The position numbers and the translations under genes are program-made. From positions 12,358 through 76,357 of the forward strand of contig CAIKZD010000017.1 of the NCBI GenBank assembly GCA_903831805.1: 64,000 nt of DNA, written 5' to 3'. The notes below the pieces were generated by a model, which was not told the origin of the DNA, did no database searches, and worked only from the letters and a program-made list of their open reading frames with translations. The stretch's first letter is position 1; the number at the start of each line of letters is the position of its first letter. This document shows, one piece after another, positions 1 through 30,869 of this stretch. The stretch comes from an uncultured bacterium (GTDB lineage Bacteria > Patescibacteriota > Minisyncoccia > Moranbacterales > UBA2206).

Positions 1-1
1 G

Positions 2-22
2 GGTATCAAGATCGAAGGTTAA
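2..22 (+). CDS. 3' end of upstream gene, possibly ribosomal protein L11 (partial; ...GIKIEG stop)
   Basis: Frame-2 translation ends in GIKIEG then TAA. It lies directly upstream of rplA, as in the conserved rplK-rplA arrangement. Confidence 0.3.
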   Translation, partial: GIKIEG

Positions 23-74
23 TCAATTTAATTTGTGGGAGATTTATACTAATCGCTATCACCACGAAAAATAT

Positions 75-764
75 ATGAAACACGGAAAAAAGTATCGAGC
101 AGTGGCCGAAAAATTTGATAAGTATAAGATGTATTCCTTGGAAGAAGCCATCAAATTCTTGAAAGAGAACAAGGTTTCTAAATTCGATGAGTCCGTAGAA
201 GTGCACATCAAGACGAATGTTGACCCGAAGAAAACCGATCAACAATTGCGTGGCACGACTGAACTGCCACATGGCACTGGTAAGACCAAAAGAATTGTAG
301 TTATCACGACCACGCATGCGGCCGATGCCAAGGAGGCGGGGGCTGACGCGGTAGTGGGGGATGAATTTATCGAAAAAATCAAATCCGGCAAAGCTTTTGT
401 GGGAAAAGATGCTTTTGATATTTTGGTGGCTACCCCGGAAATGATGCCGAAACTGGCACCAGTGGCCAAAATCCTGGGACCGAAGGGCCTGATGCCAAAT
501 CCAAAAACCGAAACTGTCACCACCAAAATCAAAGAAACGGTCAAAGCGCTGAAAGGTGGCAAAGTGGCTTTCAAAAATGACAATGGCGCTATTGTGCATC
601 AAGTGGTCGGAAAATTGTCCTTCGATGATGCAAAATTGGTTGAAAATATCACTTCTTTTATTGCGAGCCTGGAAAAATTCAAACCGGCTAAGATGAAAGG
701 TAAATTAGTAACGAGAGTGAGTCTTTCTTCTACGATGGGTGTCGGCATGAAAATCAGCTTGTAA
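75..764 (+). CDS. rplA: 50S ribosomal protein L1
   Basis: ORF 33..764 reads MKHGKKYRAVAEKFDKYKMYSLEEAIKFLKE...TELPHGTGK, which is typical of L1. The in-frame ATG at 75 is the likely start. Confidence 0.9.
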   Translation: MKHGKKYRAVAEKFDKYKMYSLEEAIKFLKENKVSKFDESVEVHIKTNVDPKKTDQQLRGTTELPHGTGKTKRIVVITTTHAADAKEAGADAVVGDEFIEKIKSGKAFVGKDAFDILVATPEMMPKLAPVAKILGPKGLMPNPKTETVTTKIKETVKALKGGKVAFKNDNGAIVHQVVGKLSFDDAKLVENITSFIASLEKFKPAKMKGKLVTRVSLSSTMGVGMKISL

Positions 765-785
765 AATTACTTTTGGATATCGCGA

Positions 786-810
786 AAAAGCGCCGGCAGG
801 GCGCTTTTTC
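786..810 (+). terminator. rho-independent terminator after rplA
   Basis: Hairpin AGCGCC-GGCAG-GGCGCT followed by TTTTT. Confidence 0.6.
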
Positions 811-812
811 TA

Positions 813-841
813 TTGACGCTCAGGTATGTTTTTGCTATAAT
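813..841 (+). promoter_or_regulatory. sigma70-like promoter (TTGACG-17-TATAAT)
   Basis: TTGACG and TATAAT hexamers separated by 17 nt, upstream of the kinase-like gene at 865. Confidence 0.5.
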
Positions 842-864
842 CTTTGGGTGGTTAAATCTTTTTA

Positions 865-1455
865 ATGAGTTTTAAAACAATGGCAAAGAATAAAATCGTT
901 ATCGGGTTGATCGGAGAAAAAGGCGCCGGCAAAGGCACAGTTTCAGATTATTTAATTGAAAAATATGGCGCCGTGCATTATGGCACGTCCAAAATTTTGC
1001 GCCGTACCTTGGAAGACATCCATGTAAGTGTGACGCGTGACAATCTGGTGAAGCTGGCACTGGTGCTGAAAGAAGGCTATGGTCCGTCCATCATCATCGA
1101 TTCCTTGATCCAGGATATGGAAAAAGCTCAGTCGGACATCATCATCGCCGACGGCATCCGAATGCATGGGGACGTGGAACCTTTTCGCCAAAAATTCGGC
1201 CAGAACTTTTTCTTGGTGTATGTGACGGCTGATTTGAAATTGCGCTACGCGCGCACTAAAGCTAGAAAACAAAATGCCGGTGAAGGTGAAGCAACACTGG
1301 AAGAATTTTTGGAAGAAGAAGGACGGCTCACAGAAGTGTCCATCCATGAAATCGGTCGCCAAGCGGATTTCAAGATGAACAACAACGGCACAGCCGAAGA
1401 ACTGATCGCCCAGACGGAAGAGATGATGGGAAAGATCACGAATAAATACGAATAG
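865..1455 (+). CDS. P-loop nucleoside monophosphate kinase, adenylate/UMP-CMP kinase-like (possible (d)CMP/dNMP kinase)
   Basis: P-loop GLIGEKGAGKGT (the GKGT of the AK/CMK family), an NMP-binding-like ADGIR motif and LID-like arginines (YARTKARK). Lies next to dCMP deaminase and thyA. Confidence 0.5.
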   Translation: MSFKTMAKNKIVIGLIGEKGAGKGTVSDYLIEKYGAVHYGTSKILRRTLEDIHVSVTRDNLVKLALVLKEGYGPSIIIDSLIQDMEKAQSDIIIADGIRMHGDVEPFRQKFGQNFFLVYVTADLKLRYARTKARKQNAGEGEATLEEFLEEEGRLTEVSIHEIGRQADFKMNNNGTAEELIAQTEEMMGKITNKYE

Positions 1456-1484
1456 AAAACGAATATATACAAACGAATTTACGA

Positions 1485-1512
1485 ACACCTCTGAATAGGG
1501 GGTGTTTTTTTA
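1485..1512 (+). terminator. rho-independent terminator
   Basis: ACACCTC-TGAATA-GGGGGTGT followed by TTTTTTT. Confidence 0.5.
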
Positions 1513-1624
1513 TGCTGATTATGGCGAAGTATGTCAATTTTGACCAGAGGAGAGAAAGATAGTAAAATTAAGGAACCCCCTATGAAAAGAAAGGAGAGAT
1601 AATTAAAAGTTAAAAAATAAAAAA

Positions 1625-2194
1625 ATGGCCAATAAGAAAAAATTTAAGAGTACTAGGATAGGCTGGGATGAAACTTTTATGAATATGGCTACATTGCTGA
1701 CGCGAAGGGTTTCTTGCATCGTTGTGAAAACTGCCGCTGTCTATGTCGACGCTAATCACAGAGTGGTTTCTTTAGGATATAACGGTCCGGTCAAAGGCGG
1801 GTATAATTGTGACGAAGTGGGGTGTGCCAAAATAGACGGTAATCCGAAGACGGGAAAGTTGGAACGATGCCGTGGAGCACACGCGGAAATAAATGGAATA
1901 ATCAATGCAATCAATCCAAGAACATTGGAAGGCGCCACTCTTTATACTGTAAAATATCCTTGCTTTGATTGTATGAAAGCCTTGGCCAATGCGGGAATAA
2001 AAGAAATCGTTTACTACGAAAAATATTTAAGAACGCAAACCGGCGGTGAGAAGTTTGAAGAAGAGACTGAGTCTGAAGACTTGGCGAAAATGAAAAAAAT
2101 AAAAGTTAGGAAATTCAAGGGTGAAGTTCTTTGTTTGCCAGCCGAGAGTTTTGATTCTAAAGAGAATAAAAAAAGAGAAAAAGCGTGCTGTTAA
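1625..2194 (+). CDS. deoxycytidylate (dCMP) deaminase, ComEB-like
   Basis: Zinc-dependent CDA motifs HAEINGI and PCFDCMK, plus the LGYNG signature. Confidence 0.8.
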   Translation: MANKKKFKSTRIGWDETFMNMATLLTRRVSCIVVKTAAVYVDANHRVVSLGYNGPVKGGYNCDEVGCAKIDGNPKTGKLERCRGAHAEINGIINAINPRTLEGATLYTVKYPCFDCMKALANAGIKEIVYYEKYLRTQTGGEKFEEETESEDLAKMKKIKVRKFKGEVLCLPAESFDSKENKKREKACC

Positions 2195-2215
2195 TTATTT
2201 AGCTTTAAAATTTTT

Positions 2216-3205
2216 ATGTTGCAAGAAAAAAAACATCCTGAGTATCAATATTTGGAACTTTGCCAAGACATCCTGGACAATGGAACCGCGCAGACTGATC
2301 TTGGCACAGGCGTAGTGACTCATAGTCTCTTTGGTCGTCAGATCAGATTCGATCTTGCTGAGGGTTTTCCATTGCTAACTACCAAAAAAGTCTACTGGAA
2401 AGGTGTTTTGCAAGAGCTCTATTGGTTCTTGTCCGGTCAATCCAATATCAAATATCTCGTGGATAATAATGTGCATATCTGGGATGATTATCCATATAAG
2501 ATTTACCGTGAATTGATGGAAAAAAAGGAAGTACCGGAGATGACCAAGGAAGAATTTGTTGAAAAAATCGCCACGGATGATGAATTTGCCGAGCAATATG
2601 GAAAATTGAAACATATCTATGGAGAGATGTGGCGACATTGGCCGGCCAAAGATGGACGTGGAATCGATCAAGTGCAATGGATTGTGGATGAGATGAGAAA
2701 GGATCCTGATTGTCATAATGCTATTGTCAATTCCTGGAACCCGGAATTTCTTTATGCCATGGCTAAGCCGGAAGAAGCTTCACGCTTTCCAATCTGCCAC
2801 AATATGTATCAATGCAGTGTTAGCAAGGGTAGGCTTTCCTTACAGCTCTATCAGAGAAGTGCGGATATTTTCTTGGGTGTGCCGTTCAATATTGCTAGTT
2901 ATGCGTTGCTCACTATAATTTTAGCTAAAGTGACGGGTAATCAGCCAGGCGAATTCATCCATACCTTTGGAGATGTACATGTGTACGAAAAACATATTGA
3001 AGCGGTCAAAGAACAATTGGCGCGTGAGCCATTGCCGTTTTCCAAAATAACAATTTCTGATGAGGTGAAAGAGTTGGATGATTTCCGTCCGGAGCATGTC
3101 ACGTTGGAAAATTATGCCGCCCATCCGCCAATCAAAGCCGAATTGGCGCCGACCGGGGGACTTGTGACGAAGAATTGGAAAGAATTTGTGCAGAAAAAAT
3201 CATAA
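2216..3205 (+). CDS. thyA: thymidylate synthase (ThyA), long form with internal insert
   Basis: LQLYQRSADIFLGVPFNIASYALL, catalytic ICHNMYQ and WNPE motifs. 329 aa with a small-domain insert similar to the L. casei and T4 forms. Confidence 0.9.
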   Translation: MLQEKKHPEYQYLELCQDILDNGTAQTDLGTGVVTHSLFGRQIRFDLAEGFPLLTTKKVYWKGVLQELYWFLSGQSNIKYLVDNNVHIWDDYPYKIYRELMEKKEVPEMTKEEFVEKIATDDEFAEQYGKLKHIYGEMWRHWPAKDGRGIDQVQWIVDEMRKDPDCHNAIVNSWNPEFLYAMAKPEEASRFPICHNMYQCSVSKGRLSLQLYQRSADIFLGVPFNIASYALLTIILAKVTGNQPGEFIHTFGDVHVYEKHIEAVKEQLAREPLPFSKITISDEVKELDDFRPEHVTLENYAAHPPIKAELAPTGGLVTKNWKEFVQKKS

Positions 3206-3215
3206 ATATAAAACA

Positions 3216-3716
3216 ATGAAAATCATTTTGGTTATGGCTGCGACGCTCGATGGCAGGATTGCGAAATCGAGTGATCATTTTCCGGATTGGACGAGTAGGG
3301 AAGATAAGAAATTTTTCCAGCGAGTTTCCAAAGAAGCTAGGGTGGTCATTATGGGCGATAAAACCTTTGCCACTTTTCCATCTCCGTTGAAAGATAGGCT
3401 GAATGTGGTTTTTACGATGGAAGAAAATAAGCCAATGATAGAAGGAGTTAAATGGGTGAAAGGCGAGCCGGCAGATGTGATAGCCGAATTGGAAAAAATG
3501 GGATACGAAACGGCGATTTTAGGCGGCGGTGCATTTGTTAATGGAATGTTTCTGGAGAAAAAGTTAGTGGACGAAATTTATGTGACCATTGAGCCGAAAA
3601 TCTTTGGTGATGGCATATCACTTTTTAAGGGAGATTTTGACGTTAATTTGAAACTGAAAGAAATAGAGAAAATCAATGACGATGCGGTGGTGTTGAAGTA
3701 TGAGGTGGTAAAATAA
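3216..3716 (+). CDS. dihydrofolate reductase-fold protein (RibD C-terminal-like DHFR family)
   Basis: MKIILVMAATLDGRIA... and VVIMGDKTF motifs. Immediately downstream of thyA. Confidence 0.65.
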   Translation: MKIILVMAATLDGRIAKSSDHFPDWTSREDKKFFQRVSKEARVVIMGDKTFATFPSPLKDRLNVVFTMEENKPMIEGVKWVKGEPADVIAELEKMGYETAILGGGAFVNGMFLEKKLVDEIYVTIEPKIFGDGISLFKGDFDVNLKLKEIEKINDDAVVLKYEVVK

Positions 3717-3734
3717 TATTTTATTGTATAGAAT

Positions 3735-4571
3735 ATGAAAGATGTTTTATATGTACCAGGAGGATTTGATGTTTTGCATTCTGATCATAAAAAATATATA
3801 AAAAAATGTTTCAATGCAGTTTCTAAACAATTTAAAATTGATAAGGTCATAATTGGTTTGATTTCCGATAATGATCTTCAGGTCAAAGGGAAAGAAAGAC
3901 CAATATTTTCCTATGAGTGGAGAAAGGAAGATTTAATTGATTGGGCCAAAAATAACTTTAAAGATGTTGAATTTGAGGTTGAAAAATTAAATACATCTTG
4001 TTTCAAAAAATTTCCTCAAAATGATAAGATACTCAAAAGAATTATTACAATAAGTAGTGAACATAAGAATAGCCTTCCAATCAAAGAGCTTTGCGATTGG
4101 CATCCAAAAGTTTTTTTTATTAATCCGACTGGGAAGAAGCATACTTCCGATATTCCAGATAGAATAGAGAAAATGAAAAAACTATCGGGGTGTTTTATTA
4201 GAAAAGTATCCGCAATAGTAGTGAGAAGTGGAGATATAGTTAAAATAACGAAAAATGGCACAAGTAAGAAATGTCTAGAAAATAATTGTGACAAATATAA
4301 AGACCTTATTGCAAAGTATAAAAGAACAGGGAAAAAGATGCCTTCGGATGTGCCTTGCGATTTCCCTCATGCCGAGATTAGAGCATTAGGCTATTCAAAA
4401 AATGGTGACGATATGGTCATAGCTAGTTCGCCTTGTATGCAATGTGCGGAAGGGATAGTATCAAAAAAAATTAGAAGAGTAGTTTATTTTGAGGAGTATC
4501 ATGATTTTACACCAATTGTCTTTTTAAAGAAGCATGGAGTTGCATGCAGAAAGGCTGGTGTTAATAAATAA
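3735..4571 (+). CDS. fusion protein: N-terminal cytidylyltransferase-like nucleotidyltransferase (HxGH) plus C-terminal dCMP/cytidine deaminase-like zinc deaminase
   Basis: N-terminus GGFDVLHSDH...IGLISDND...YEWRKEDLI is TagD/CTP-transferase-like. C-terminus HAEIRAL...SPCMQCA carries the CDA zinc motifs. Markedly lower GC than its neighbours. Confidence 0.6.
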   Translation: MKDVLYVPGGFDVLHSDHKKYIKKCFNAVSKQFKIDKVIIGLISDNDLQVKGKERPIFSYEWRKEDLIDWAKNNFKDVEFEVEKLNTSCFKKFPQNDKILKRIITISSEHKNSLPIKELCDWHPKVFFINPTGKKHTSDIPDRIEKMKKLSGCFIRKVSAIVVRSGDIVKITKNGTSKKCLENNCDKYKDLIAKYKRTGKKMPSDVPCDFPHAEIRALGYSKNGDDMVIASSPCMQCAEGIVSKKIRRVVYFEEYHDFTPIVFLKKHGVACRKAGVNK

Positions 4572-4590
4572 TTTATTAATAAATAGTGTT

Positions 4591-5259
4591 ATGAAATACG
4601 AAGTAGAAATCAAAAGTCTTTTGCAAACTAACGAAAATGCGCAGAAGTTGCGGGATAAGTTGGCTGAACAGGGGATTGAAATAAAAAATAAGTACAAACA
4701 ACTTAATCACTATTTTCTGAACGACGGGGATTTCACTAAATTAGAAGAAGAGTTGTTACCTTTGTTTTCTGATGAGAAAAAAGAAAAACTGAAGAAAATT
4801 TTAGAAGAAGGCCAGAACCATTCTTTGAGAACTAGAGAGATGAACGGCGAGGCATTCTTTGTGATCAAAGCCTCGGTGGATGATACCACTTCGTCCAATG
4901 GAATTTTGCGCATGGAATTTGAAGAGACGGCTGGCATTTCCATGGACGCACTGAACAAGCTTTTGGAAGAGGCGGGATTTTCCTATCAAGCTAAATGGTC
5001 GCGAGAAAGAGAGGAATATGGCAAAGATGATTTCTATATCACGATCGACAAGAACGCTGGCTATGGATTTTTGTCGGAGTTTGAGATTCAGACGGAAGAC
5101 CAAGAAAAATTAGGCGAGACGAAACAGCGAATTGTGGATTTCATGGGAGATCTTGGGCTCCAAGAACTTTCTCAAGATCGTCTGGAACGGATGTTCAAGT
5201 TCTACAACGAAAACTGGCGTGAATATTACGGCACGGAGAATGTTTTTAATGTGGAGTAG
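4591..5259 (+). CDS. CYTH-domain protein (CyaB-like class IV adenylyl cyclase / triphosphatase family)
   Basis: MKYEVEIKSLL N-terminus and an acidic EFEIQTED motif typical of CYTH. The ATG at 4591 is preferred over the ORF-track start. Confidence 0.6.
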   Translation: MKYEVEIKSLLQTNENAQKLRDKLAEQGIEIKNKYKQLNHYFLNDGDFTKLEEELLPLFSDEKKEKLKKILEEGQNHSLRTREMNGEAFFVIKASVDDTTSSNGILRMEFEETAGISMDALNKLLEEAGFSYQAKWSREREEYGKDDFYITIDKNAGYGFLSEFEIQTEDQEKLGETKQRIVDFMGDLGLQELSQDRLERMFKFYNENWREYYGTENVFNVE

Positions 5260-5329
5260 CCAAATATTGCTAAATTCTGGCATATTGGCTAGAATGGTAG
5301 AGAAGAATAATAGTTAGATATATTTAGAT

Positions 5330-6895
5330 ATGGCCAAATATACACCGGTTATCGGGATGGAAGTGCATGTGGAGTTGAAGACTGCTTCGAAGATGTTTTG
5401 TGATTCCAAGAACGGGATGGGAGAGGAGCGCGAGCCGAATGTGAATATCTGTCCGGTCTGTACCGGGCAACCGGGGACTTTGCCGGTGCCAAATGTTCAA
5501 GCCATTGAATTTGTACAATTGGCCGGTTTGGCTTTGGGTTGCACTTTGCGGTTGGATTCCAAATTTGACCGCAAGAACTATTTCTATCCGGATCTGCCGA
5601 AGGGCTACCAGATTTCGCAATATGATCAACCGTTGTGCGAAAAAGGAAAGCTAAGAATTGATGGGAAAGAAATCGGCGTGACTAGAATTCATTTGGAAGA
5701 AGACACGGGGAAACTCATTCATCCGAAAGGCGTGAATTATACCTTAGTTGATTTCAATCGGGCTGGTGTGCCTCTCATGGAACTGGTGACGGAACCGGAC
5801 ATTGAGACGGGCGAAGAGGCGCGCTTGTTCTGTCAGAAGCTGCAACAGATCTGCCGCTATTTGGAAATTTCGGACGCGGATATGGAGAAAGGCCACATGC
5901 GTTGTGAAGCTAACATCTCGCTCTACAAAGAAGGGGAAGACAAATTGTCCGGCACCAAAGTGGAAGTGAAAAACATCAATAGTTTTAAATTTGTGGAAAA
6001 AGCCATTGCTTTTGAAATTGAACGTCAGACGGAACTTTTGGATAAGGGCAAAGAAATTGTGCAGGAGACGCGCGGCTGGGATGCTAATCGCGGCGAAACA
6101 GTGTCACAAAGAAAAAAGGAATCGGCCCATGACTATCGCTATTTCCCCGAGCCGGACATTCCACCGCTCAAGTTTGATGAAAATTATGTCGAAGCGCTGC
6201 GCCGGAAATTGCCGGAACTACCGGACGCTAAAATTGCTCGGTTTGAAAAGGAATATGCATTGCCGAAAAGTGACGTGGAAATTTTAACGGCCGATAAAGA
6301 AATGGCGGAATATTTTGAAGAAGTGGCGAGTGAAATAAAAGAAAAAATTTCCTGCCATGAGATTGAAGCGGCGGAAAACAAAGCCTTGAAATTGGCCGCC
6401 AACTATATCATTACCGAACTCAGGAAACATTTGTCAGAACATAATCATAGTATGGCAGACATTAAAATTACTCCGGAGAATTATGCGGAATTGGTGGGGC
6501 TAGTAGCTTGCGGGAAGATTAATTCCACCGCCGCGCAAACAGTATTAGCAGAAATGTACAAAACCGGTGGTGATCCTTCGCAGATAATTTCCGAAAAGAA
6601 TTTAGCACAAATGGACGGTGGAGATGAAATGGAGGCCATGGTGGAAAAAGTCTTGGCAGCCAATGCGGCTTCGGTGGCGGATTTCAAAGCCGGCAAAGAG
6701 AACGCGTTGAAATTTTTGATGGGACAAGTGATGTCGGCTACGCAAGGAAGAGCTAATCCTATGGCTGTTAATGAATTACTTAGAAAGAAATTATCAGGCA
6801 GTACAGATGTCAGATCCGCCTCTGGCGGAAAAGAATCGGGCGGCAAAGCCAATCCGAGCGCAGCCATGGAAATGATTAAGAAAAAAATTACATAG
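5330..6895 (+). CDS. gatB: Asp-tRNA(Asn)/Glu-tRNA(Gln) amidotransferase subunit B
   Basis: MAKYTPVIGMEVHVELKT...CPVCTGQPGTLP and a C-terminal GatB/YqeY-type domain. Confidence 0.9.
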   Translation: MAKYTPVIGMEVHVELKTASKMFCDSKNGMGEEREPNVNICPVCTGQPGTLPVPNVQAIEFVQLAGLALGCTLRLDSKFDRKNYFYPDLPKGYQISQYDQPLCEKGKLRIDGKEIGVTRIHLEEDTGKLIHPKGVNYTLVDFNRAGVPLMELVTEPDIETGEEARLFCQKLQQICRYLEISDADMEKGHMRCEANISLYKEGEDKLSGTKVEVKNINSFKFVEKAIAFEIERQTELLDKGKEIVQETRGWDANRGETVSQRKKESAHDYRYFPEPDIPPLKFDENYVEALRRKLPELPDAKIARFEKEYALPKSDVEILTADKEMAEYFEEVASEIKEKISCHEIEAAENKALKLAANYIITELRKHLSEHNHSMADIKITPENYAELVGLVACGKINSTAAQTVLAEMYKTGGDPSQIISEKNLAQMDGGDEMEAMVEKVLAANAASVADFKAGKENALKFLMGQVMSATQGRANPMAVNELLRKKLSGSTDVRSASGGKESGGKANPSAAMEMIKKKIT

Positions 6896-6900
6896 CATTA

Positions 6901-6933
6901 AAAAAGCTTTCCCATTGACGGAAAGTTTTTTTG
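6901..6933 (+). terminator. rho-independent terminator after gatB (A-run before, U-run after)
   Basis: AAAAAAGCTTTCC-CATTGAC-GGAAAGTTTTTTT. Confidence 0.7.
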
Positions 6934-7255
6934 AGATAAGGTGGGGAGAAGTTAAAAGAAAGAAGGATGAACCTTAACAAAATAGATGGAGGGAATATGT
7001 TGGAGCTCTGTGGGAACAAATATGAGGCGCAGTGTATAGGTGTAGATTTATGATCTGGGCAAGGTATGGTGGAAGGTGGTGGGGAATTATATCCATAGAG
7101 CAGATAAGAAGGAGTGCTCTATCGGAGTTGAATGATGGCATAGTAACGGCGTATCCTCGGGAACTAAAAGCACTTGTAAAAGAAAAAATAGGCAAGTTGG
7201 GAGGGGTTTTCTGTCCGACTTGTATGGCAAAATAAAAAATCAACCAAAGAGGTTA

Positions 7256-7447
7256 TGTATGCAGACTGCCAGAAATGCCTGCCATATGGGTGGCATGAAG
7301 GGACGCGAGAATGGGATGGTGAAAATTATCATCCCGCGGGATGTTGCCTGGGAGGAGGTTACCTCCCATGATTTATCTAATCTGAATGCCGGAGGTGTTA
7401 ACGCTCCCAAGGGCATGAGGATTGTAGAGATTGAACGCAAAAAGTGA
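7256..7447 (+). CDS. small hypothetical ORF (about 63 aa) in the gatB-miaA spacer
   Basis: ATG preceded by AAGAGG and followed by a strong hairpin terminator. No similarity recognised; it could instead be part of an ncRNA. Confidence 0.2.
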   Translation, partial: CMQTARNACHMGGMKGRENGMVKIIIPRDVAWEEVTSHDLSNLNAGGVNAPKGMRIVEIERKK

Positions 7448-7450
7448 GAG

Positions 7451-7495
7451 TGAGGCGGCTGGTCCAATTGGATCAGTCGCCTCGAATTATTTTCT
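7451..7495. terminator. strong hairpin, likely bidirectional terminator
   Basis: GAGGCGGCTGGTCC-AATT-GGATCAGTCGCCTC followed by AATTATTTTCT. Has U-runs on both strands; sits between a plus-strand unit and the minus-strand miaA. Confidence 0.5.
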
Positions 7496-7510
7496 AGAGT
7501 AATAAAGGCT

Positions 7511-7546
7511 GGCGAACGGTCCGCTGATTACAGCGAACAGTCCGCT
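7511..7546. repeat. 36-bp GGCGAACGGTCCGC-N8-GCGAACAGTCCGCT element (intergenic copy)
   Basis: Near-identical to 62327..62362, which lies inside atpD. Related to the palindrome at 17704..17736. Confidence 0.7.
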
Positions 7547-7567
7547 ATTTGTGATAGGCAGGCTCTT

Positions 7568-8584
7568 CTAGGATAAAAATTTTTCCACTTCTTCTTCAAT
7601 TTTTTGATAATAATCTAGCCATACGATACGCGCATCTTTTTTAAACCACGTCAGCTGCCGTTTGGCATAATCTTTTTCGGCTAGGTATATTTTTTCCAAT
7701 AAGTCTTCTTCGGAAGTAATATGCCCGCGTAAAAATTGTGGAATAAGTTTGTAGCTCAAACCGAAGCTTTCCATTTTTTTCCAGCTGAGGCCAGTAGCAT
7801 GTAGTTTTTGCACTTCGTCTATCATCCCACCGGCAAATCTTTTTTGGACATTTGACTTGATTCTTTCGTGCAAGACTTCTTTTTCTCGCGCGATGCCGAT
7901 CTGGAGGAAGTCGTGCTGCGCTTGGCGTGGGAGTTCAACTCCCATTAGGGGAGTTGAACTCCCTGTTTTTATTTTTGGCACTTTGCCTATGGCTTTGCAG
8001 ATTTCAATCGCTCGAATCAGTCGCACTGGATTTTTGGCGTCGATAGTTTTGGCACGCTCGGGGTCTAATTTTTCGAGCATAGTGAAAAGTTCTTCTGTGG
8101 TTTTGTTACGTAGCATGCTACGTAACACCGGATCAGGCGCGACTTCGGGATAACTGACATTATCGACGATGGCTTTGATCCAAAAACCGGTCCCACCGGC
8201 GATGATGGGGACTTTTCCGCGCGATAGAATTTCGGCGATAACTTTGTCGGCATATTTTTTAAATTTGGCGGCGTTATATTCAGTCTTGGGACTGACGATG
8301 TCGATGCCATAATGGGGGATTCCTTCTGAAAGAAAGACGTTGCCCCCTCTGTCCCGACGAGTACATCGGGACGTCTCCCCCGAGTACAGGGGAGAAGGAA
8401 TTGGGTCAGACTCAATTTTTCCAGTGCCGATGTCCATGCCGCGATAAATCTGGCGGGAATCCGCGCTCAAAACTTCGCCGTTAAATTTTTTGGCCAGTGA
8501 AATAGCGGCCGAAGATTTGCCACTAGCAGTCGGACCGAGGATGACGATTATTTTAGGAGAAAGCCTCTTTTTTTTAGTGCTCAT
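7568..8584 (-). CDS. miaA: tRNA dimethylallyltransferase
   Basis: IVILGPTASGKSSAAISLAKKF...SADSRQIYRGMDIGTGK. Start set to the in-frame Met before the P-loop. Confidence 0.85.
   Translation of the reverse strand: MSTKKKRLSPKIIVILGPTASGKSSAAISLAKKFNGEVLSADSRQIYRGMDIGTGKIESDPIPSPLYSGETSRCTRRDRGGNVFLSEGIPHYGIDIVSPKTEYNAAKFKKYADKVIAEILSRGKVPIIAGGTGFWIKAIVDNVSYPEVAPDPVLRSMLRNKTTEELFTMLEKLDPERAKTIDAKNPVRLIRAIEICKAIGKVPKIKTGSSTPLMGVELPRQAQHDFLQIGIAREKEVLHERIKSNVQKRFAGGMIDEVQKLHATGLSWKKMESFGLSYKLIPQFLRGHITSEEDLLEKIYLAEKDYAKRQLTWFKKDARIVWLDYYQKIEEEVEKFLS
7929..7965. repeat. perfect 15-bp inverted repeat inside the miaA CDS
   Basis: GGGAGTTCAACTCCC-ATTAG-GGGAGTTGAACTCCC, coding for ...TPLMGVELP.... 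Confidence 0.6.
8343..8394. repeat. AGTA-loop hairpin module inserted in frame in miaA
   Basis: CCCTCTGTCCCGACGAGTACATCGGGACGTCTCCCCCGAGTACAGGGGAG. Encodes the non-conserved peptide ...SGETSRCTRRDRGG.... Confidence 0.7.
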
Positions 8585-8691
8585 AAGATAGTGTAATAGT
8601 TTAGGTAAAACTAGCAAAAAAATTGATAAAGAGCAAGGAATTGTAGTCTTGACCAGGTGGCGATCTGGTTTGATTTAAAAAATATGAAATA

Positions 8692-8720
8692 TTGTACGGC
8701 ATTTTTTTAAATGCTATAAT
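8692..8720 (+). promoter_or_regulatory. sigma70-like promoter (TTGTAC-17-TATAAT)
   Basis: Hexamers with 17-nt spacing, upstream of the delta-60 repeat gene. Confidence 0.45.
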
Positions 8721-8783
8721 AATGACGTGTAAAATGTCTAACAGAAAAATATAAAAATTTAAATTAGCAAATAAAATATTGAG

Positions 8784-11700
8784 ATGAGAAGAAAATATTT
8801 TTTAAGAATAACAGTAATTATAATCGTTGTTTTTTTACTGGCAAAAGGCCATGTAGCGCACGCGGCTGATCGGTTCAGTGCTTTGACAATCGGGGGATCG
8901 AACAACGATACTATAAACTCTATTGTCCAAACCTCAGATGGCGGTTACGCGGCGGCGGGATATACAGCCAGTTATGGCGCGGGAGGCAACGATGTTTATG
9001 TTGTCAAATTCACATCTGCTGGCGCCCTGGACACGTCTTTCGGCACCGGCGGCACACTGACGCTTGGCGGAGCTGGTGATGATAGCGCAAATTCTATTGT
9101 TCAAACCTCTGAGGGTGGCTATATTGTGGCGGGATATACAAATAGCTATGGCGCGGGAAACTATGATTTATACATAATTAAACTTACTTCCGCAGGCGCC
9201 CTGGACACGTCTTTCGGCACCGGTGGCACACTGACGCTTGGCGGAGCCGGTAATGAGCAAGCGCGTTCTATTATTCAAACGACTGATGGTGGTTATGCAT
9301 TGGCGGGATATTCAGACAGTTATGGCGCTGGAAGCACAGATGTTTATATTGTTAAATTCACATCTGTTGGCGCCCTGGACACATCTTTCGGCACCAATGG
9401 AACGCGGACGGCTGGCGGAAATCTAGATGATGCGGCAACTTCTATTGTTCAAACAACTGACGGCGGTTACGCTATCGCTGGGAATACATATAGTTATGGC
9501 GCGGGAGGTAGTGATTTCTATATAATAAAATTCACATCTGTTGGCGCCCTGGACACATCTTTCGGCACCGGTGGCACACGGACGGTTGGCGGAGCCAGCA
9601 CTGATATTGCAAAGTCAATCATCCAAACAACCGATGGCGGTTACGCGGCAGCGGGATATACAAATAGCTATGGCGCGGGAGACTATGATGCTTATGTTGT
9701 CAAATTCACATCCGCTGGCGATCTGGATACATCTTTCGGCACCGGCGGCACGCGGACGATTGGCGGCACGGCCTATGATAGCGCAGCTTCCATCATTCAA
9801 ACAACTGACGGTGGCTACGCTTTTGCTGGGGATACAACCAGTTATGGTACATTGAGTAGTAATTTTTACATTGCCAAGCTTACTTCCAGTGGTGCTTTGA
9901 ACACGTCTTTCGGCACCGGTGGAACGTTGACGGTCAGTAGTTTCGGCAGTACTGGTGATAATGCAAATTCCATCATTCAAACAACTGATGGCGGCTATGC
10001 GGTGGCGGGGGATCCTGTGGTTATGCACTATAGTGATGGGTTTATTATCAAACTCGATACTGCGGGTTCTATGGGCAGCAGTTGCAGTAATGCGACTGGC
10101 TATGGCGGCGTGCTTGGTAGCGGTGGTGCAATAAATTCCGGCGGCACGCTTAGTAATGGCGGCACCCTTGGTAGCGGTGGTGGTGCAATAGGTTCCGGTG
10201 GCACAATTTCAGAGAAATGCAGTGTTTCTATTTCCCTGCCGACTGTTGCAACCGAAGAAGCTACTGATATTGCTGCTGATGCTGCTACTGCTAACGCTAA
10301 CTTGAGCGATACTGGCGGGGAAAATCCAAATCGTCTCATTCAATACGGCACCACGAGTGGCGTTTATACCAACTCTTGCGCCGCCGGCACTGGCGATGTG
10401 GGGGATTTTTCTTGCGCGATGACTAGTCTCTCTCCCAGTACGACCTATTATGTCAGGGCCGAAGCGATAAATTTCGCTGGAACATCTTATGGTACAGAGA
10501 TGAATTTCACGACCACAGACATCGCTCAGCTGGTGGCTCCTGTCGTAGATTCAGATTCCTCTAATCCATTTGATGATTGTCAGCCGAAGACTTTAAAAGC
10601 TAAAGCAGTTTCATCTTCAGAAATTAAATTGAAGTGGAAGGATAATTGCAGCGGGGAAGACGGCTATATTATTGAAAGAGAAACAGCAAAAGGAAAATTT
10701 AAAAAGATAGATTCGGTCGGCGAGAATAAGAATTCCTATACAGATAAAGGCCTACTCTCTAAAAAGAAATACACTTATAGAGTCAAGGCATATGAAGGAC
10801 ATGACAAAACTGGCCACACTAATAAATCGAGTGCCACAACTTTGGCCGTGATGACACCGACTAAGACTTCCCGGACGCATGTTTCCGAAACGACTCCAGC
10901 TTCAACTGATAATCCTAGTGAAGCAACCGTGACTACGAGTGTTGATACGCTTAATGTTCCAGGCAATAGTAATGGCGAGTCTTTATCGGTGGACAAAATT
11001 AATAAAAACCCAGAGAAAAAAGATTCTATCATAGCGCAAGAAGGGAAACTCTTGGGCGATTTTATCGAAAGTCCTGCCGGTCAAAAAACTTCCGCCGCGG
11101 TTACTGGTCTGGGTATCCTTGTGGGCGCGATTGTGGCGGCGGCGACTAGCGCTATTCCGCTCATAGCATCGTCTTCAGGTGGCGCTCCATTTGCTAGTGG
11201 ATTACCAAAACGCTTCAGTTTTTTCGGAATTATGACTCCCAGAGAAAAGAAAATAAATTGGGGCGTGGTGTTTGATATCGACACTCATCGACCGATCGCT
11301 GGCGCTTTAGTTTCTATACTTAATGCTGAGGAAAGAGTGGTTGATTCAATGACTACTAATATGGAGGGAAAATTCGGGTTCCTAGCGGCTAAAGGAGGGT
11401 ATACCTTCAGGATTTCCAAAAAAGATTACGCACTGTTCACTGAAAAGAATACGGATGATTTTTATGGAAAAATTTATGATGGAAAAATTTTCACAATTGA
11501 AAATGATGATGTAGCTGAGACTAATATCGCCATAAGGTCGACTAAAATTGATTGGCGTGAACTTTCCAAAAGAAAGTTGGCAATATACAAAATGGCGCTT
11601 TCAATTATAGGCAGGCATTCATTGTTGGTTTTATTCTACGGCTGTTTCGTCATTTCAGCCACTATATTGTACGTTTCTCCTTCAACATTTAATGCCTTCA

Positions 11701-12014
11701 CGGTGGCTGTGTATGTAGTTATAATAGCGCACAATCTGTTTTTTAAAGTGAAAAAATATGGATTGATAACCGATCAACGGGGCGAGCCACTGCCGTTTAC
11801 CATGGTCAGTATCTACGCTGGAGAACAGCATGACAGGCGCGCAGCTTTCGCGATCAGTGATATTTTGGGACGCTATTTTGTGTTGGCTAAAGATGATAAA
11901 TATCTGATGAAGATGCAGGGTCAAACGAGAGGAGGAGCATCTTTCGGAAAATCGTTTGATATTAATGTCAGGGACGGAGTCTTTAGGCGGGATGTAGTCA
12001 TTAAGGGAGAATGA
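8784..12014 (+). CDS. large secreted/membrane-anchored surface protein: about 9 delta-60-type repeats (DTSFGTGG, ~58-aa period), fibronectin-III-like domain, Gly-rich linker, C-terminal TM segments and carboxypeptidase-regulatory-like domains
   Basis: Signal peptide MRRKYFLRITVIIIVVFLLA. Periodic SFGTGGT...GGYxxAGYTxSYGAG...YxxKLTSxGALDT repeats, then KLKWKDNCSGEDGYIIERE...YTYRVKAYEG (FN3) and C-terminal hydrophobic segments. Confidence 0.7.
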   Translation: MRRKYFLRITVIIIVVFLLAKGHVAHAADRFSALTIGGSNNDTINSIVQTSDGGYAAAGYTASYGAGGNDVYVVKFTSAGALDTSFGTGGTLTLGGAGDDSANSIVQTSEGGYIVAGYTNSYGAGNYDLYIIKLTSAGALDTSFGTGGTLTLGGAGNEQARSIIQTTDGGYALAGYSDSYGAGSTDVYIVKFTSVGALDTSFGTNGTRTAGGNLDDAATSIVQTTDGGYAIAGNTYSYGAGGSDFYIIKFTSVGALDTSFGTGGTRTVGGASTDIAKSIIQTTDGGYAAAGYTNSYGAGDYDAYVVKFTSAGDLDTSFGTGGTRTIGGTAYDSAASIIQTTDGGYAFAGDTTSYGTLSSNFYIAKLTSSGALNTSFGTGGTLTVSSFGSTGDNANSIIQTTDGGYAVAGDPVVMHYSDGFIIKLDTAGSMGSSCSNATGYGGVLGSGGAINSGGTLSNGGTLGSGGGAIGSGGTISEKCSVSISLPTVATEEATDIAADAATANANLSDTGGENPNRLIQYGTTSGVYTNSCAAGTGDVGDFSCAMTSLSPSTTYYVRAEAINFAGTSYGTEMNFTTTDIAQLVAPVVDSDSSNPFDDCQPKTLKAKAVSSSEIKLKWKDNCSGEDGYIIERETAKGKFKKIDSVGENKNSYTDKGLLSKKKYTYRVKAYEGHDKTGHTNKSSATTLAVMTPTKTSRTHVSETTPASTDNPSEATVTTSVDTLNVPGNSNGESLSVDKINKNPEKKDSIIAQEGKLLGDFIESPAGQKTSAAVTGLGILVGAIVAAATSAIPLIASSSGGAPFASGLPKRFSFFGIMTPREKKINWGVVFDIDTHRPIAGALVSILNAEERVVDSMTTNMEGKFGFLAAKGGYTFRISKKDYALFTEKNTDDFYGKIYDGKIFTIENDDVAETNIAIRSTKIDWRELSKRKLAIYKMALSIIGRHSLLVLFYGCFVISATILYVSPSTFNAFTVAVYVVIIAHNLFFKVKKYGLITDQRGEPLPFTMVSIYAGEQHDRRAAFAISDILGRYFVLAKDDKYLMKMQGQTRGGASFGKSFDINVRDGVFRRDVVIKGE

Positions 12015-17745: not shown

Positions 17746-17775
17746 TGCGTGGTGACTTTTATTCAATTAAAGAAA

Positions 17776-18168
17776 ATGAAAGTTTATAATAAAAATTTTG
17801 ATGAATGGAACGTTTTAAAAAAGGAATTACATAAAAGAAAAAATATTCCCTTCTTTCACGAGCGTGAAATATGGTGGTGCGCACTAGGTTTGAATGTAGG
17901 GTTTGAGGAAGATGGAAAAAATGATAATTTTGAGAGACCGATTTTGATTATGCGTGTGTTTAGCCATGAAGTTTTGTGGGTGTTGCCTATGACGAGCCAA
18001 GATAGAACTGGAGAATATTATCACCAGTTCAGATATCGCGGAGAAAAATATTCAATAATTATTTCCCAATTAAAACTCATAAGCAGTCGAAGATTACTCA
18101 GAAAAATTAGAAAGTTTTCTGAAAGGGATTTTCTTGAGGTGAAAAATAAGATCAAAAATCTTTTATAA
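17776..18168 (+). CDS. MazF/PemK-like endoribonuclease-fold protein (orphan toxin-like)
   Basis: EIWWCALGLNVGFEEDGK...ERPILIM...VLPMTSQ...SIIISQLKLISSRRL aligns with the MazF/EndoA pattern (DVYxADL..GSEQGGxRPVLV...ITSQ...QIRTIDKxRL). Confidence 0.5.
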   Translation: MKVYNKNFDEWNVLKKELHKRKNIPFFHEREIWWCALGLNVGFEEDGKNDNFERPILIMRVFSHEVLWVLPMTSQDRTGEYYHQFRYRGEKYSIIISQLKLISSRRLLRKIRKFSERDFLEVKNKIKNLL

Positions 18169-26298: not shown

Positions 26299-26703
26299 AT
26301 GAATAATATTATGCAGTTTGATGAAGAAAAGATCAGAAGATTGCCAGAGATTTTTTCTGTAGCTGATTCCATCGGCTCCATCAGATGTTATGATGGTTTA
26401 AGTTCCAATTTTCCGTGCATAGTTCTGAGGATTGATACAGGAGAATTTTTTAATCCGTCTTTACTGCATGTTTTTCATCTGGTAGGTATTAATAATCATT
26501 GCATGATGGAGTTTTTCCATAATGGAAAAGTTCTGAAGGAATTGGCATATGCCAGGTTTGAACAGGAAGGAGAAAAAACAATAAATGTAGTGAATGTTTT
26601 AGTGAGGAATATTGTCAGAGAATGTGGTACTTCAGTAAATGATGTGGAAAGGAAAAATATCGCGACTGCAATCAAAAAATTGCTCGAAGATAGATTTCAA
26701 TAG
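26299..26703 (+). CDS. hypothetical protein (134 aa)
   Basis: Consensus promoter and SD; no recognisable domain. Confidence 0.5.
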   Translation: MNNIMQFDEEKIRRLPEIFSVADSIGSIRCYDGLSSNFPCIVLRIDTGEFFNPSLLHVFHLVGINNHCMMEFFHNGKVLKELAYARFEQEGEKTINVVNVLVRNIVRECGTSVNDVERKNIATAIKKLLEDRFQ

Positions 26704-30419: not shown

Positions 30420-30869
30420 TTTAATATTCAATTTCGTAATTTTTAAATTAAAAAATTTAAGACATTTATTGAAGATTGATTATTGATCATTGGAAATTGG
30501 AGACAATAAAAACTACCCCAGAGAAGTAGCTTTAAATATTACGCATGATGATACAGTATTTTCCATCTTTTTTATTATCCCCTTAATCCGGATTGCTCCA
30601 TGGATGCGGCAGGATGATTATGAATCCAGTATAGCACAGAGTGTTTTCCATAACAAAAAAGAACCTGGCTATAGTTCCAGATCTTTTTTGTTTTCTTTAA
30701 TATACAGGCCTATATTTATTTCCCGCTTATATGATAAGATGGAAACAATAAACGAAAGAACTATAAAAACACAAAGTTTATTATCTCAAAAAACCATGAA
30801 CATGTCAACCCTGTTAAATAAGTGAGTAAAAATGGGGGCTTGAAATTTTGTAGCTATTTAAATAATGTA

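Follow-up and report, generated by a model that had tools for sequence, protein, structure and literature searches.

A rare cytidylyltransferase-like/deaminase fusion in the thymidylate operon of a Moraniibacteriota bacterium as a candidate, horizontally exchanged dUMP-supply enzyme

We analyzed a 64,000-nucleotide stretch of DNA (hereafter the window) from an uncultured Moraniibacteriota bacterium of the Candidate Phyla Radiation (CPR), in which a gene at 3735-4571 joins a cytidylyltransferase-like domain to a zinc-dependent deaminase domain. This gene, referred to below as the fusion, lies in a thymidylate cluster of the order dcd-thyA-DHFR-fusion-CYTH-gatB (Table 1). The initial annotation, made from the sequence alone, described the fusion as a foreign gene of aberrant composition that encodes a second deaminase beside a canonical dCMP deaminase and is paired with a CYTH gene, and read the arrangement as a candidate system for defence or nucleotide modification. 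The architecture, the foreign and mobile character of the gene, the second deaminase and the link to CYTH all stood in our analysis, while the reading as defence or modification did not.

Table 1 Features of the window and of the corresponding loci in relatives. Window positions count from the first nucleotide of the stretch, and positions for L-numbered contigs are those of the respective contig.
Contig	Position	Strand	Feature	Evidence
Window	865..1455	+	(d)NMP-kinase-type P-loop kinase, PRK08356-like, 5' of operon	NCBIfam NF006226 67.8 bits; Pfam AAA_17, DNMK
Window	1483-1507	+	Terminator-like hairpin	Consensus scan only
Window	1540-1568	+	Promoter-like site TTGACC-17-TAAAAT	Consensus scan only
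Window	1625..2194	+	Canonical dCMP deaminase (dcd), 189 aa, intact GYNG, first gene of apparent operon	Pfam 64.6 bits; ComEB-like 81.5 bits
Window	2216..3205	+	ThyA, thymidylate synthase, 329 aa, long form	Pfam 325 bits; NCBIfam 360 bits
Window	3216..3716	+	DHFR/RibD_C-type reductase, 166 aa, ATG at 3216	Pfam RibD_C, DHFR_1; gene callers also 166 aa
Window	3735..4571	+	Fusion, 278 aa: cytidylyltransferase-like N-domain and DCTD-type zinc deaminase C-domain	
Window	3735..4178	+	Fusion N-domain, residues 1-148, Rossmann-type CCT/TagD/ECT-class nucleotidyltransferase fold	
Window	4179..4568	+	Fusion C-domain, residues 149-278, dCMP-deaminase fold	
Window	4591..5259	+	CYTH (triphosphate-tunnel) gene, 222 aa	Pfam CYTH 40.2 bits vs 23.2
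Window	5330..6895	+	gatB, conserved right flank of variable slot	Pfam; 80% identical to a Candidatus Moraniibacteriota metagenome-assembled genome (MAG)
L008	8980-9927		DHFR-gatB slot: Tmk + MazG-like	Read from sequence, by analogy with the Pfam-verified L013 genes
L013	8500-9883		DHFR-gatB slot: Tmk + dUTPase + MazG	
L017	8855-9963		DHFR-gatB slot: Tmk + dUTPase	
L018	9317-9859		DHFR-gatB slot: short CYTH	
L023	9306-9986		DHFR-gatB slot: short CYTH	
L025	9454-9993		DHFR-gatB slot: short CYTH	
L013	4831-5376		Standalone RfaE-domain-II-like cytidylyl/adenylyltransferase	
L017	6933-7520	-	Standalone RfaE-domain-II-like cytidylyl/adenylyltransferase	
L009	3988-4578	-	Standalone RfaE-domain-II-like cytidylyl/adenylyltransferase	
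L038	4370-4981		Standalone RfaE-domain-II-like cytidylyl/adenylyltransferase	
L001	6671-7210		Standalone RfaE-domain-II-like cytidylyl/adenylyltransferase	

The fusion differs in composition from its surroundings, with a GC content of 0.317 and a third-position GC content (GC3) of 0.244, the lowest GC3 among the 53 long open reading frames (ORFs) of the window (mean 0.476, SD 0.078). Public data from several studies contain the exact 278-residue protein on 17 contigs, each time in the same arrangement; the gene is therefore intact in this species and has gone to fixation. Three further contigs of the species carry identical DNA over the locus and are uninformative on selection.

Both halves of the protein pass their Pfam cut-offs, the N-domain as CTP_transf_like (residues 7-84, 28.4 bits against a cut-off of 21) and the C-domain as dCMP_cyt_deam_1 (residues 153-252, 26.6 against 25). 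As these single-sequence scores are marginal, independent support was sought from a family profile, an AlphaFold2 (AF2) model and fold comparison. A profile of the N-domain built from 17 homologs matched human ethanolamine-phosphate cytidylyltransferase at 4e-10 and, more weakly, archaeal PPAT, CCT and TagD, with the TagD alignment running end to end; among NCBIfam models, archaeal PPAT and RfaE-II were the best matches. The single-chain AF2 model calculated from the family alignment was confident (pLDDT 86.5, pTM 0.83), and the fold of the C-domain was nearest to dCMP deaminases (S-TIM5, T4, human and S. mutans) and not to CDA, TadA or APOBEC. No entry in the PDB or BFVD spanned both halves, the BFVD matches being to single domains. 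The N-domain thus does match nucleotidyltransferase models, in line with the architecture first described. Next to the window protein stands P0001, from a JGI sample, which is 99% identical but lacks PSDV owing to a 12-nt in-frame indel at window residues 200-205; these four residues belong to a loop of low model confidence that separates the cysteines of the structural zinc site from HAE.

In the window protein, the N-domain carries FDVLHSDH (H15, H18), K51-G-x-x-R55-P56, W62-R63, D66 and H136-T137-S138-D139. The C-domain carries H212-A-E214, P233-C234-M-Q-C237, the cysteines C153 and C208 at positions of the Cys-rich structural site and a RRVVYFEEY tail, so that both criteria motifs of DCTD-type deaminases, the catalytic HxE and the zinc-binding PCxxC, are present. 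Across the first 19 sequences of the family, the invariant or nearly invariant positions of the N-domain were F11, D12, H15, H18, K51, R55, P56, W62, R63, D66, H136, T137 and S138, giving the conserved motifs FDxLHxxH, KGxxRP and HTSD, and those of the C-domain were S151, C153, C208, H212, A213, E214, P233 and C234. In the alignment to ECT and CCT, these N-domain positions match both histidines of HxGH, the catalytic lysine, the conserved arginine of ER and the ...STSD element; the histidines, lysine, arginine and T-S residues are the counterparts of those with which CCT and TagD contact phosphate. Both histidines of HxGH are invariant; in place of the glycine, the window protein has D and most members have D, N or S, with G kept in a few. 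The counterpart of K51 in ECT and CCT is the lysine of KG, and HTSD(I) matches the ...STSD(I) end of the second cytidylyltransferase motif, RTEGISTS, of which the Arg-Thr-Glu part is missing. The C-domain also varies at the position of G(Y/W)N(A/G), the allosteric motif of DCTD for dCTP/dTTP (PMC12088426): it reads TKNG in the window fusion, SKNG in P0002, G(Y/F)SG in the P0007 clade and GYNG in the phage clade. The canonical dcd of the window, unlike the neighbouring fusion, keeps GYNG.

Proteins of this architecture form a real but rare family, with members in CPR bacteria, probable DPANN archaea and phages. Among 5.8 billion proteins, a word-indexed search returned only 18 homologs, each of 239-285 aa and covered over both domains. 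When the N-domain profile was run exhaustively with HMMER against 1.84 billion representatives, it returned 58 clusters at E<=1e-10, about 45 of them fusion-length, and the weaker matches were standalone cytidylyltransferase-like proteins of 135-165 aa; overall the family is put at about 45-55 clusters. HAE was kept in 48 of 56 fusion-length members, as was PCxxC (also 48/56). In P0018/P0022, P0024, P0037 and P0054, HAE and/or PCxxC were lost and the FDxLHxxH and HTSx motifs of the N-domain were retained, which suggests that the N-domain has a function or value independent of deamination.

A further group of members (P0011, P0012, P0021 and P0046, also P0008) contains 5-7% Trp, is depleted in Gly, has W where the consensus has G (e.g., IPWWFDVLH) and clusters in the tree. 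These are likely genes of genetic code 25, in which TGA encodes Gly (Gracilibacteria/Absconditabacteria or their phages), that were called under code 4.

The metagenome and viral scans used a 9-sequence alignment of the family, and genome contigs were scanned with GatB. The scan of viral contigs returned ordinary single-domain deaminases only (L097-L099), and a tblastn search of the cultured phages in INPHARED matched the deaminase half only, with no full-length fusion. A literature search for the fusion, for CPR thymidylate clusters and for S-TIM5 found nothing relevant. The combination of cytidylyltransferase-like and dCMP-deaminase domains is thus new to solved structures, to BFVD, to the INPHARED cultured phages and to the literature searched.

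Each domain has well-studied relatives, from which the fusion departs in several respects. Compared with the dCMP deaminases (EC 3.5.4.12) DCTD, ComEB, T4 Cd and that of S-TIM5, it adds an N-terminal cytidylyltransferase-fold domain of ~148 aa, has lost G(Y/W)N(A/G) in the window and shares its operon with a canonical dcd. Compared with the PF01467 cytidylyltransferases CCT, ECT and TagD (GCT), it has HxDH or HxNH for HxGH, RTEGISTS reduced to xGxHTSD and no RYVDEV dimer motif, is fused to a deaminase and has no evident phospho-alcohol acceptor and no assignable acceptor-binding residues. Enzymes of the DCTD fold that act on triphosphates are human CDADC1, the bi-DCD of PBCV-1 and the 5m-dCTP deaminase of phage XP-12 (PMC12088426); what these enzymes have in addition is either another deaminase domain, which is inactive, or local Lys/Arg residues, and not a nucleotidyltransferase fold as in the fusion. 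Known enzymes that convert dCTP to dUMP share with the fusion the net chemistry proposed below and the pathway position, MazG and dUTPase being found in the same slot of relatives. Their folds are unrelated and zinc-independent, and the likeness is a presumed one of position and function only.

Gene neighbourhoods were compared over 13 independent contexts of the fusion. Thymidylate or folate genes lay within a few genes of the fusion in 7 of the 13. In 6 of the 13, the adjacent gene encodes a triphosphatase, which is CYTH in the window, the L100 lineage and phage L104, and dUTPase in L088, L105 and P0009. The three CYTH-adjacent fusions belong to three different clades, and the CYTH of the L100 lineage and that of phage L104 are of the same subfamily as that of the window (for L104, 33-35% identity over ~210 aa, with an ExExK start and a common C-terminal tail), so the CYTH pairing pointed out by the initial annotation recurs across clades and in a phage. 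In a survey of jumbo phages, a dUTPase-like action was proposed for the triphosphatases CYTH and MazG (PMC7824862). That CYTH is a mere native neighbour of gatB, unrelated to the fusion, was rejected given the CYTH-fusion-ThyA order of phage L104. A strict replacement of dUTPase/MazG by CYTH 5' of gatB was not upheld either, as L018 has both.

Among bacterial contexts, the L100/L090 lineage resembles the window (secE-nusG-rplK-rplA...kinase-dcd-thyA-HD-DHFR-fusion-CYTH), and in L001 the fusion is found with PcrA-DnaQ, a PRK08356-like kinase, serine hydroxymethyltransferase (SHMT), an RfaE-II-like cytidylyltransferase, HIT and dcd, with dcd following the fusion. A canonical dcd co-occurs with the fusion in three bacterial loci. 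Archaeal or archaeal-like contexts include P0009, which adjoins an Rpb5/Rpb2(4,5)/Rpb1 operon, a dUTPase/DCD gene and ribonucleotide reductase (RNR), P0005 (TrmB, DUF357, FKBP26) and L091 (CDC48_N and a 94-nt tRNA-Ile). The phage contexts, on contigs of 27-32% GC, comprise L088/L089 and L105, which have PolA with homing endonucleases, a dNMP kinase and the order fusion-dUTPase-ThyX; L104, which has a Mu-type portal, RuvC and the order HD...CYTH-fusion-ThyA...DHFR; and L004-L006, which are large contigs made up of small ORFs that lack annotation, with phrog_1735 (at 1e-227) and an endolysin. Homing endonuclease genes of the LAGLIDADG and HNH types break up or follow the phage PolA genes near the fusion in L105 (2106-5283) and L088 (1069-4576), the L105 PolA being split into parts of 482 and 208 aa around a LAGLIDADG ORF.

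The position of the fusion in the window was then compared with the same position in relatives. The group widely shares the order rplA - P-loop kinase - dCMP deaminase - thyA - DHFR - [variable slot] - gatB - miaA(-). The kinase is 91-93% identical in relatives, and the DHFR gene, the conserved left flank of the slot, is 82-86% identical in L008 and L100. Between DHFR and gatB lies a variable cassette site in Patescibacteria that holds combinations of Tmk, dUTPase, MazG and CYTH (Table 1). Among 82 loci, dUTPase was found in 26, MazG in 9 and CYTH in 5; within the 64-kb window, Tmk, dUTPase and MazG were not found. When the fusion N-domain was sought within 10 kb of gatB in 80 Patescibacteria relatives collected via GatB, with a profile re-check, it was found in none (0/80), so the fusion is not universal among relatives.

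The closest relative recovered, the L100 lineage, is highly similar over the flanking genes (L1 89%, kinase 91% and DHFR 86% identical, with 19 of the first 20 residues of CYTH) and has a fusion in the same slot. That fusion is only 40% identical to the window fusion, as compared with 86-91% for the flanking genes. At the DNA level, ~77% similarity covers DHFR and the fusion's first ~60 nt and returns for the last ~145 nt and on into CYTH, with none detectable over the central ~630 nt. The fusion of L001, conversely, aligns with the window gene over its whole length (67.5% DNA, 58% aa), its flanks being unrelated. In a neighbour-joining tree built on simple distances, a few of them saturated, the window protein grouped with P0002 to the exclusion of P0007 in 100 of 100 bootstraps, and P0007 grouped with the archaeal-context P0009, the window excluded, in 98 of 100. 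P0007 is 50-56% identical to P0004, P0009, P0019 and L092, as opposed to 38% to the window protein. In L090, too, the fusion has the lowest GC3 (0.278, as compared with 0.38-0.47 for its neighbours). The low identity of the alleles relative to their flanks, the pattern of the DNA breaks, the bootstrap values and the low GC3 together show that the fusion has been xenologously replaced between close relatives, the slot itself being conserved and the alleles coming from a mobile pool of low GC. The horizontal acquisition proposed by the initial annotation thus appears to have been an understatement of the mobility, the L100 allele belonging to a different deep clade.

The remainder of the cluster also varies. 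When window 1625-3205, L100 7366-8905 and L008 6588-8474 were compared, dcd and thyA were 61% and 51% identical to those of the window in L100, and 38% and 44% in L008, as compared with 82-93% for kinase, DHFR and L1. The long-form ThyA of the window is nearer to those of a Staskawiczbacteria MAG (L027, 70%) and of L043 (64%). The whole thymidylate cluster appears to be mosaic. The standalone RfaE-domain-II-like genes, which score 109-113 bits (under the equivalog cut-off of 181.5) and lie inside or beside the thymidylate cluster, may be the split counterpart or the source of the fusion N-domain.

These neighbourhoods, with ThyA or ThyX, DHFR, dUTPase and related genes, argue for a role in the supply of dUMP and dTMP, and the fusion is quite probably a thymidylate-supply enzyme rather than one of defence or modification. 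The canonical dcd in the same cluster of three bacterial genomes further argues that the role of the fusion would not be redundant with it. Chances are about even that the fusion and CYTH together constitute an accessory, horizontally exchanged dUMP-supply module in the thymidylate operon of this bacterium. Several observations point to an engagement of (d)CTP at the triphosphate level, namely the co-occurrence with dcd, the lost allosteric motif, the invariant residues that align with the phosphate-contacting ones of cytidylyltransferases, the N-domain motifs kept by members with a dead deaminase, and MazG and dUTPase in the slot of relatives; that dCTP is the actual input is a proposal we hold at somewhat short of an even chance. 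In such a scheme, the N-domain would grip (d)CTP via its phosphates, either as a substrate handle or for cleavage to dCMP, the C-domain would deaminate cytosine to uracil, and the triphosphatase encoded next to it (CYTH in the window, dUTPase elsewhere in the family) would strip the remaining phosphates, so that the resulting dUMP could pass to ThyA in parallel to the canonical dCMP deaminase. In one version dCTP would be converted to dUTP, on which CYTH or dUTPase would then act, and in the other dCTP would be cleaved to dCMP and PPi prior to deamination. For an action of the DCTD fold on dCTP, the CDADC1, PBCV-1 and XP-12 enzymes are precedents (PMC12088426).

More tentatively, and we consider this possible but doubtful, the family as a whole could represent a previously unrecognised route from dCTP to dUMP, in which a cytidylyltransferase fold holds or cleaves the triphosphate of (d)CTP, CYTH serves as an analogue of dUTPase or a true dUTPase is used, and the module is carried by phages of ultra-small CPR and DPANN cells and repeatedly swapped into host thymidylate operons. 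If true, this would be a new enzyme mechanism and a marker of phage-host and bacterial-archaeal gene flow in CPR/DPANN lineages. CPR bacteria and DPANN archaea have a minimal nucleotide metabolism in which the balancing of dCTP and dTTP is poorly understood; the fusion is a concrete, testable candidate for an alternative dUMP-supply step and would give CYTH a defined metabolic partner. The locus also offers a clean example of xenologous allele replacement in a conserved operon, with one family linking phages, CPR bacteria and archaea.

The dUMP-supply proposal has some drawbacks that need to be considered. In 6 of the 13 contexts (L002, L004, L005, L006, L091 and L092) no thymidylate gene is nearby. 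CYTH of the same subfamily adjoins thyA in L043 without a fusion, and the shorter CYTH form lies 5' of gatB in L018, L023 and L025. As dUTPase in phage modules commonly adjoins deaminase or thymidylate synthase genes whatever the mechanism, its adjacency is weak evidence. The archaeal and phage labels used here are drawn from neighbouring genes and not from taxonomy records, and should be read as such. Whether dCMP or dCTP is the substrate, and whether the N-domain is catalytic at all, is likewise deduced from gene neighbourhood and residue conservation only. Finally, as the glycine of HxGH is replaced (HSDH in the window), the competence of the N-domain for nucleotidyl transfer is uncertain.

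The replaced glycine could mean binding without catalysis, which is one of the points in favour of the likeliest alternative. In this alternative the fusion would be an ordinary dCMP deaminase isozyme, its N-domain a non-catalytic sensor of (d)CTP/dTTP in place of the lost inter-subunit allosteric site of DCTD, and CYTH an unrelated neighbour. The similarity of the C-domain to true dCMP deaminases and the degenerate allosteric motif of the window (TKNG) and P0007 (GYSG) clades agree with such a sensor, as does the proposal that fusion to a second domain made canonical allostery obsolete in CDADC1 (PMC12088426). Nonetheless, binding alone does not usually need both histidines, the lysine and the arginine to be (near-)invariant, and it would be odd for a purely regulatory domain to keep its motifs in members that have lost HAE or PCxxC. 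The phage clade has GYNG and the N-domain together, a second dCMP deaminase that is merely differently regulated is not obviously useful beside the canonical one, and the recurring adjacency of CYTH or dUTPase would be left unexplained. A regulated isozyme is, on balance, an unlikely alternative to dUMP supply from the triphosphate level.

One may also ask whether the two domains need to share a task at all, the N-domain being possibly a bona fide small-molecule cytidylyl- or adenylyltransferase of the RfaE-II, TagD or PPAT kind that was merely fused to a dCMP deaminase. The standalone RfaE-II-like genes in or beside the cluster (L001, L009, L013, L017 and L038) make a fusion of neighbouring genes plausible, and the best NCBIfam matches point the same way. 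Yet the fusion stays intact over the roughly 45-55 divergent clusters and three kinds of genomes, is retained by phages with minimal nucleotide modules and is predicted by AF2 to be a packed two-domain unit, with the pTM given above. Its N-domain signature (HxDH/HxNH, HTSD) is, moreover, unlike that of standalone cytidylyltransferases, which matched our profile A2 at 1e-6 to 8e-11 as compared with 1e-30 to 1e-50 for fusions. We consider such an unrelated pairing to be improbable.

Very improbable, to our judgement, is the defence role suggested by the initial annotation, in which the protein would deplete dCTP or dCMP on infection. The anti-phage dCTP deaminases DCD/AvcD, reportedly described by Tal et al. 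and Hsueh et al. in 2022, share the two-domain logic, in which a DCTD-fold deaminase comes after an N-domain that binds nucleotides, so that the N-domain of the fusion would take the role of their kinase-like domain. The foreign composition and the turnover of alleles between close relatives are reminiscent of defence genes, and the fusion is a second deaminase in its locus. However, the N-domain of DCD/AvcD is P-loop kinase-like, in proteins of about 430-630 aa, and the fusion has no kinase domain. The matches to defence models were weak and confined to the shared PCxxC stretch, namely 14.9 bits over residues 231-256 for PADLOC (PDLC02373) and 19.9 bits, against a cut-off of 400, over residues 222-257 for NCBIfam antiphage_deaminase (NF041025). 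The gene is fixed and identical across the 17 contigs and lies in what appears to be a housekeeping operon, many members are encoded by phages within dUTPase/ThyX/ThyA modules, and the informative contexts are of dTMP/dUMP metabolism (ThyA/ThyX, DHFR, dUTPase, dNMP kinase, SHMT and RNR), with no defence island or defence neighbours. Least probable of all is a part in nucleotide or DNA hypermodification, the other role suggested at first, in which the N-domain would activate a cytidine or uridine nucleotide or transfer a group to it, while the deaminase would supply a dUMP-type precursor for modified thymidines. In its favour, some members belong to large phage genomes, an activated intermediate is in principle within reach of a nucleotidyltransferase fold, and some phages draw on dCMP deaminases for their 5-hmdU pathways (PMC12686479). 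Beside the members examined, however, there was no modification enzyme, whether a hydroxymethylase-type Thy homolog, a glycosyltransferase, an aminoacyl-transferase or another, the neighbours being standard ThyA/ThyX, DHFR and dUTPase and the host operon a widely conserved dTMP cluster.

The kinase and dcd of the window match the N- and C-terminal halves, respectively, of anti-phage dCTP deaminase models, all far under the cut-offs (35.7 and 57 bits for NF041025; 39.6 and 61.1 bits for PADLOC dCTPase). This kinase-deaminase pair, which is conserved across Patescibacteria, appears, as judged from these model matches, to be a housekeeping relative of the fused defence enzyme with its halves in separate genes.

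The operon start is likely at the 1483-1568 region, with the hairpin preceding the promoter-like site. From there to gatB, the consensus scan showed no terminator-like site within dcd-thyA-DHFR-fusion-CYTH, and an Rfam scan of window positions 1-9000 gave no match. The CYTH ORF begins with MKYEVEIK, the ExExK motif (YEVEIK) being at residues 3-8, and 4591 is most likely its true start, matching the public gene calls of 222 aa. Its composition is normal (GC3 0.467). With respect to the triphosphate tunnel metalloenzymes (the class IV adenylate cyclase CyaB, ThTPase and PH1819), the product is nearest to the CyaB type, its nearest PDB sequences being 2aca, 3n0y, 2fjt and 2een, but it stays under the equivalog cut-off of NCBIfam cyaB (TIGR00318; 37.3 against 57.95 bits) and differs in its 222-aa form with a conserved C-terminal tail, common to the L043 and phage L104 homologs. 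After the Moraniibacteriota MAG, the next ~40 matches of gatB were all to Patescibacteria.

Elsewhere in the window, a second ORF of strongly lowered GC, at 17749-18168 (GC 0.314), codes for a PemK/MazF-like toxin (34.3 bits) and probably represents a further mobile element. Two more low-GC ORFs, at 26299-26703 (GC 0.343) and 30490-30825 (GC 0.327), had no Pfam match. A 1076-aa protein encoded at 8784-12014 is probably a cell-surface protein; it has a signal-like N-terminus, fn3 and CarboxypepD_reg domains, C-terminal hydrophobic segments and tandem DUF5122 beta-propeller repeats with units of GGYA.AGYT.SYGAG..D.Y..KFTS.GALDTSFGTGGT. Outside the window, a 61.5-kb public contig of the same species, with an identical fusion, carries a gene for a 333-aa RVT_1 reverse transcriptase just 5' of secE-nusG-rplK-rplA.

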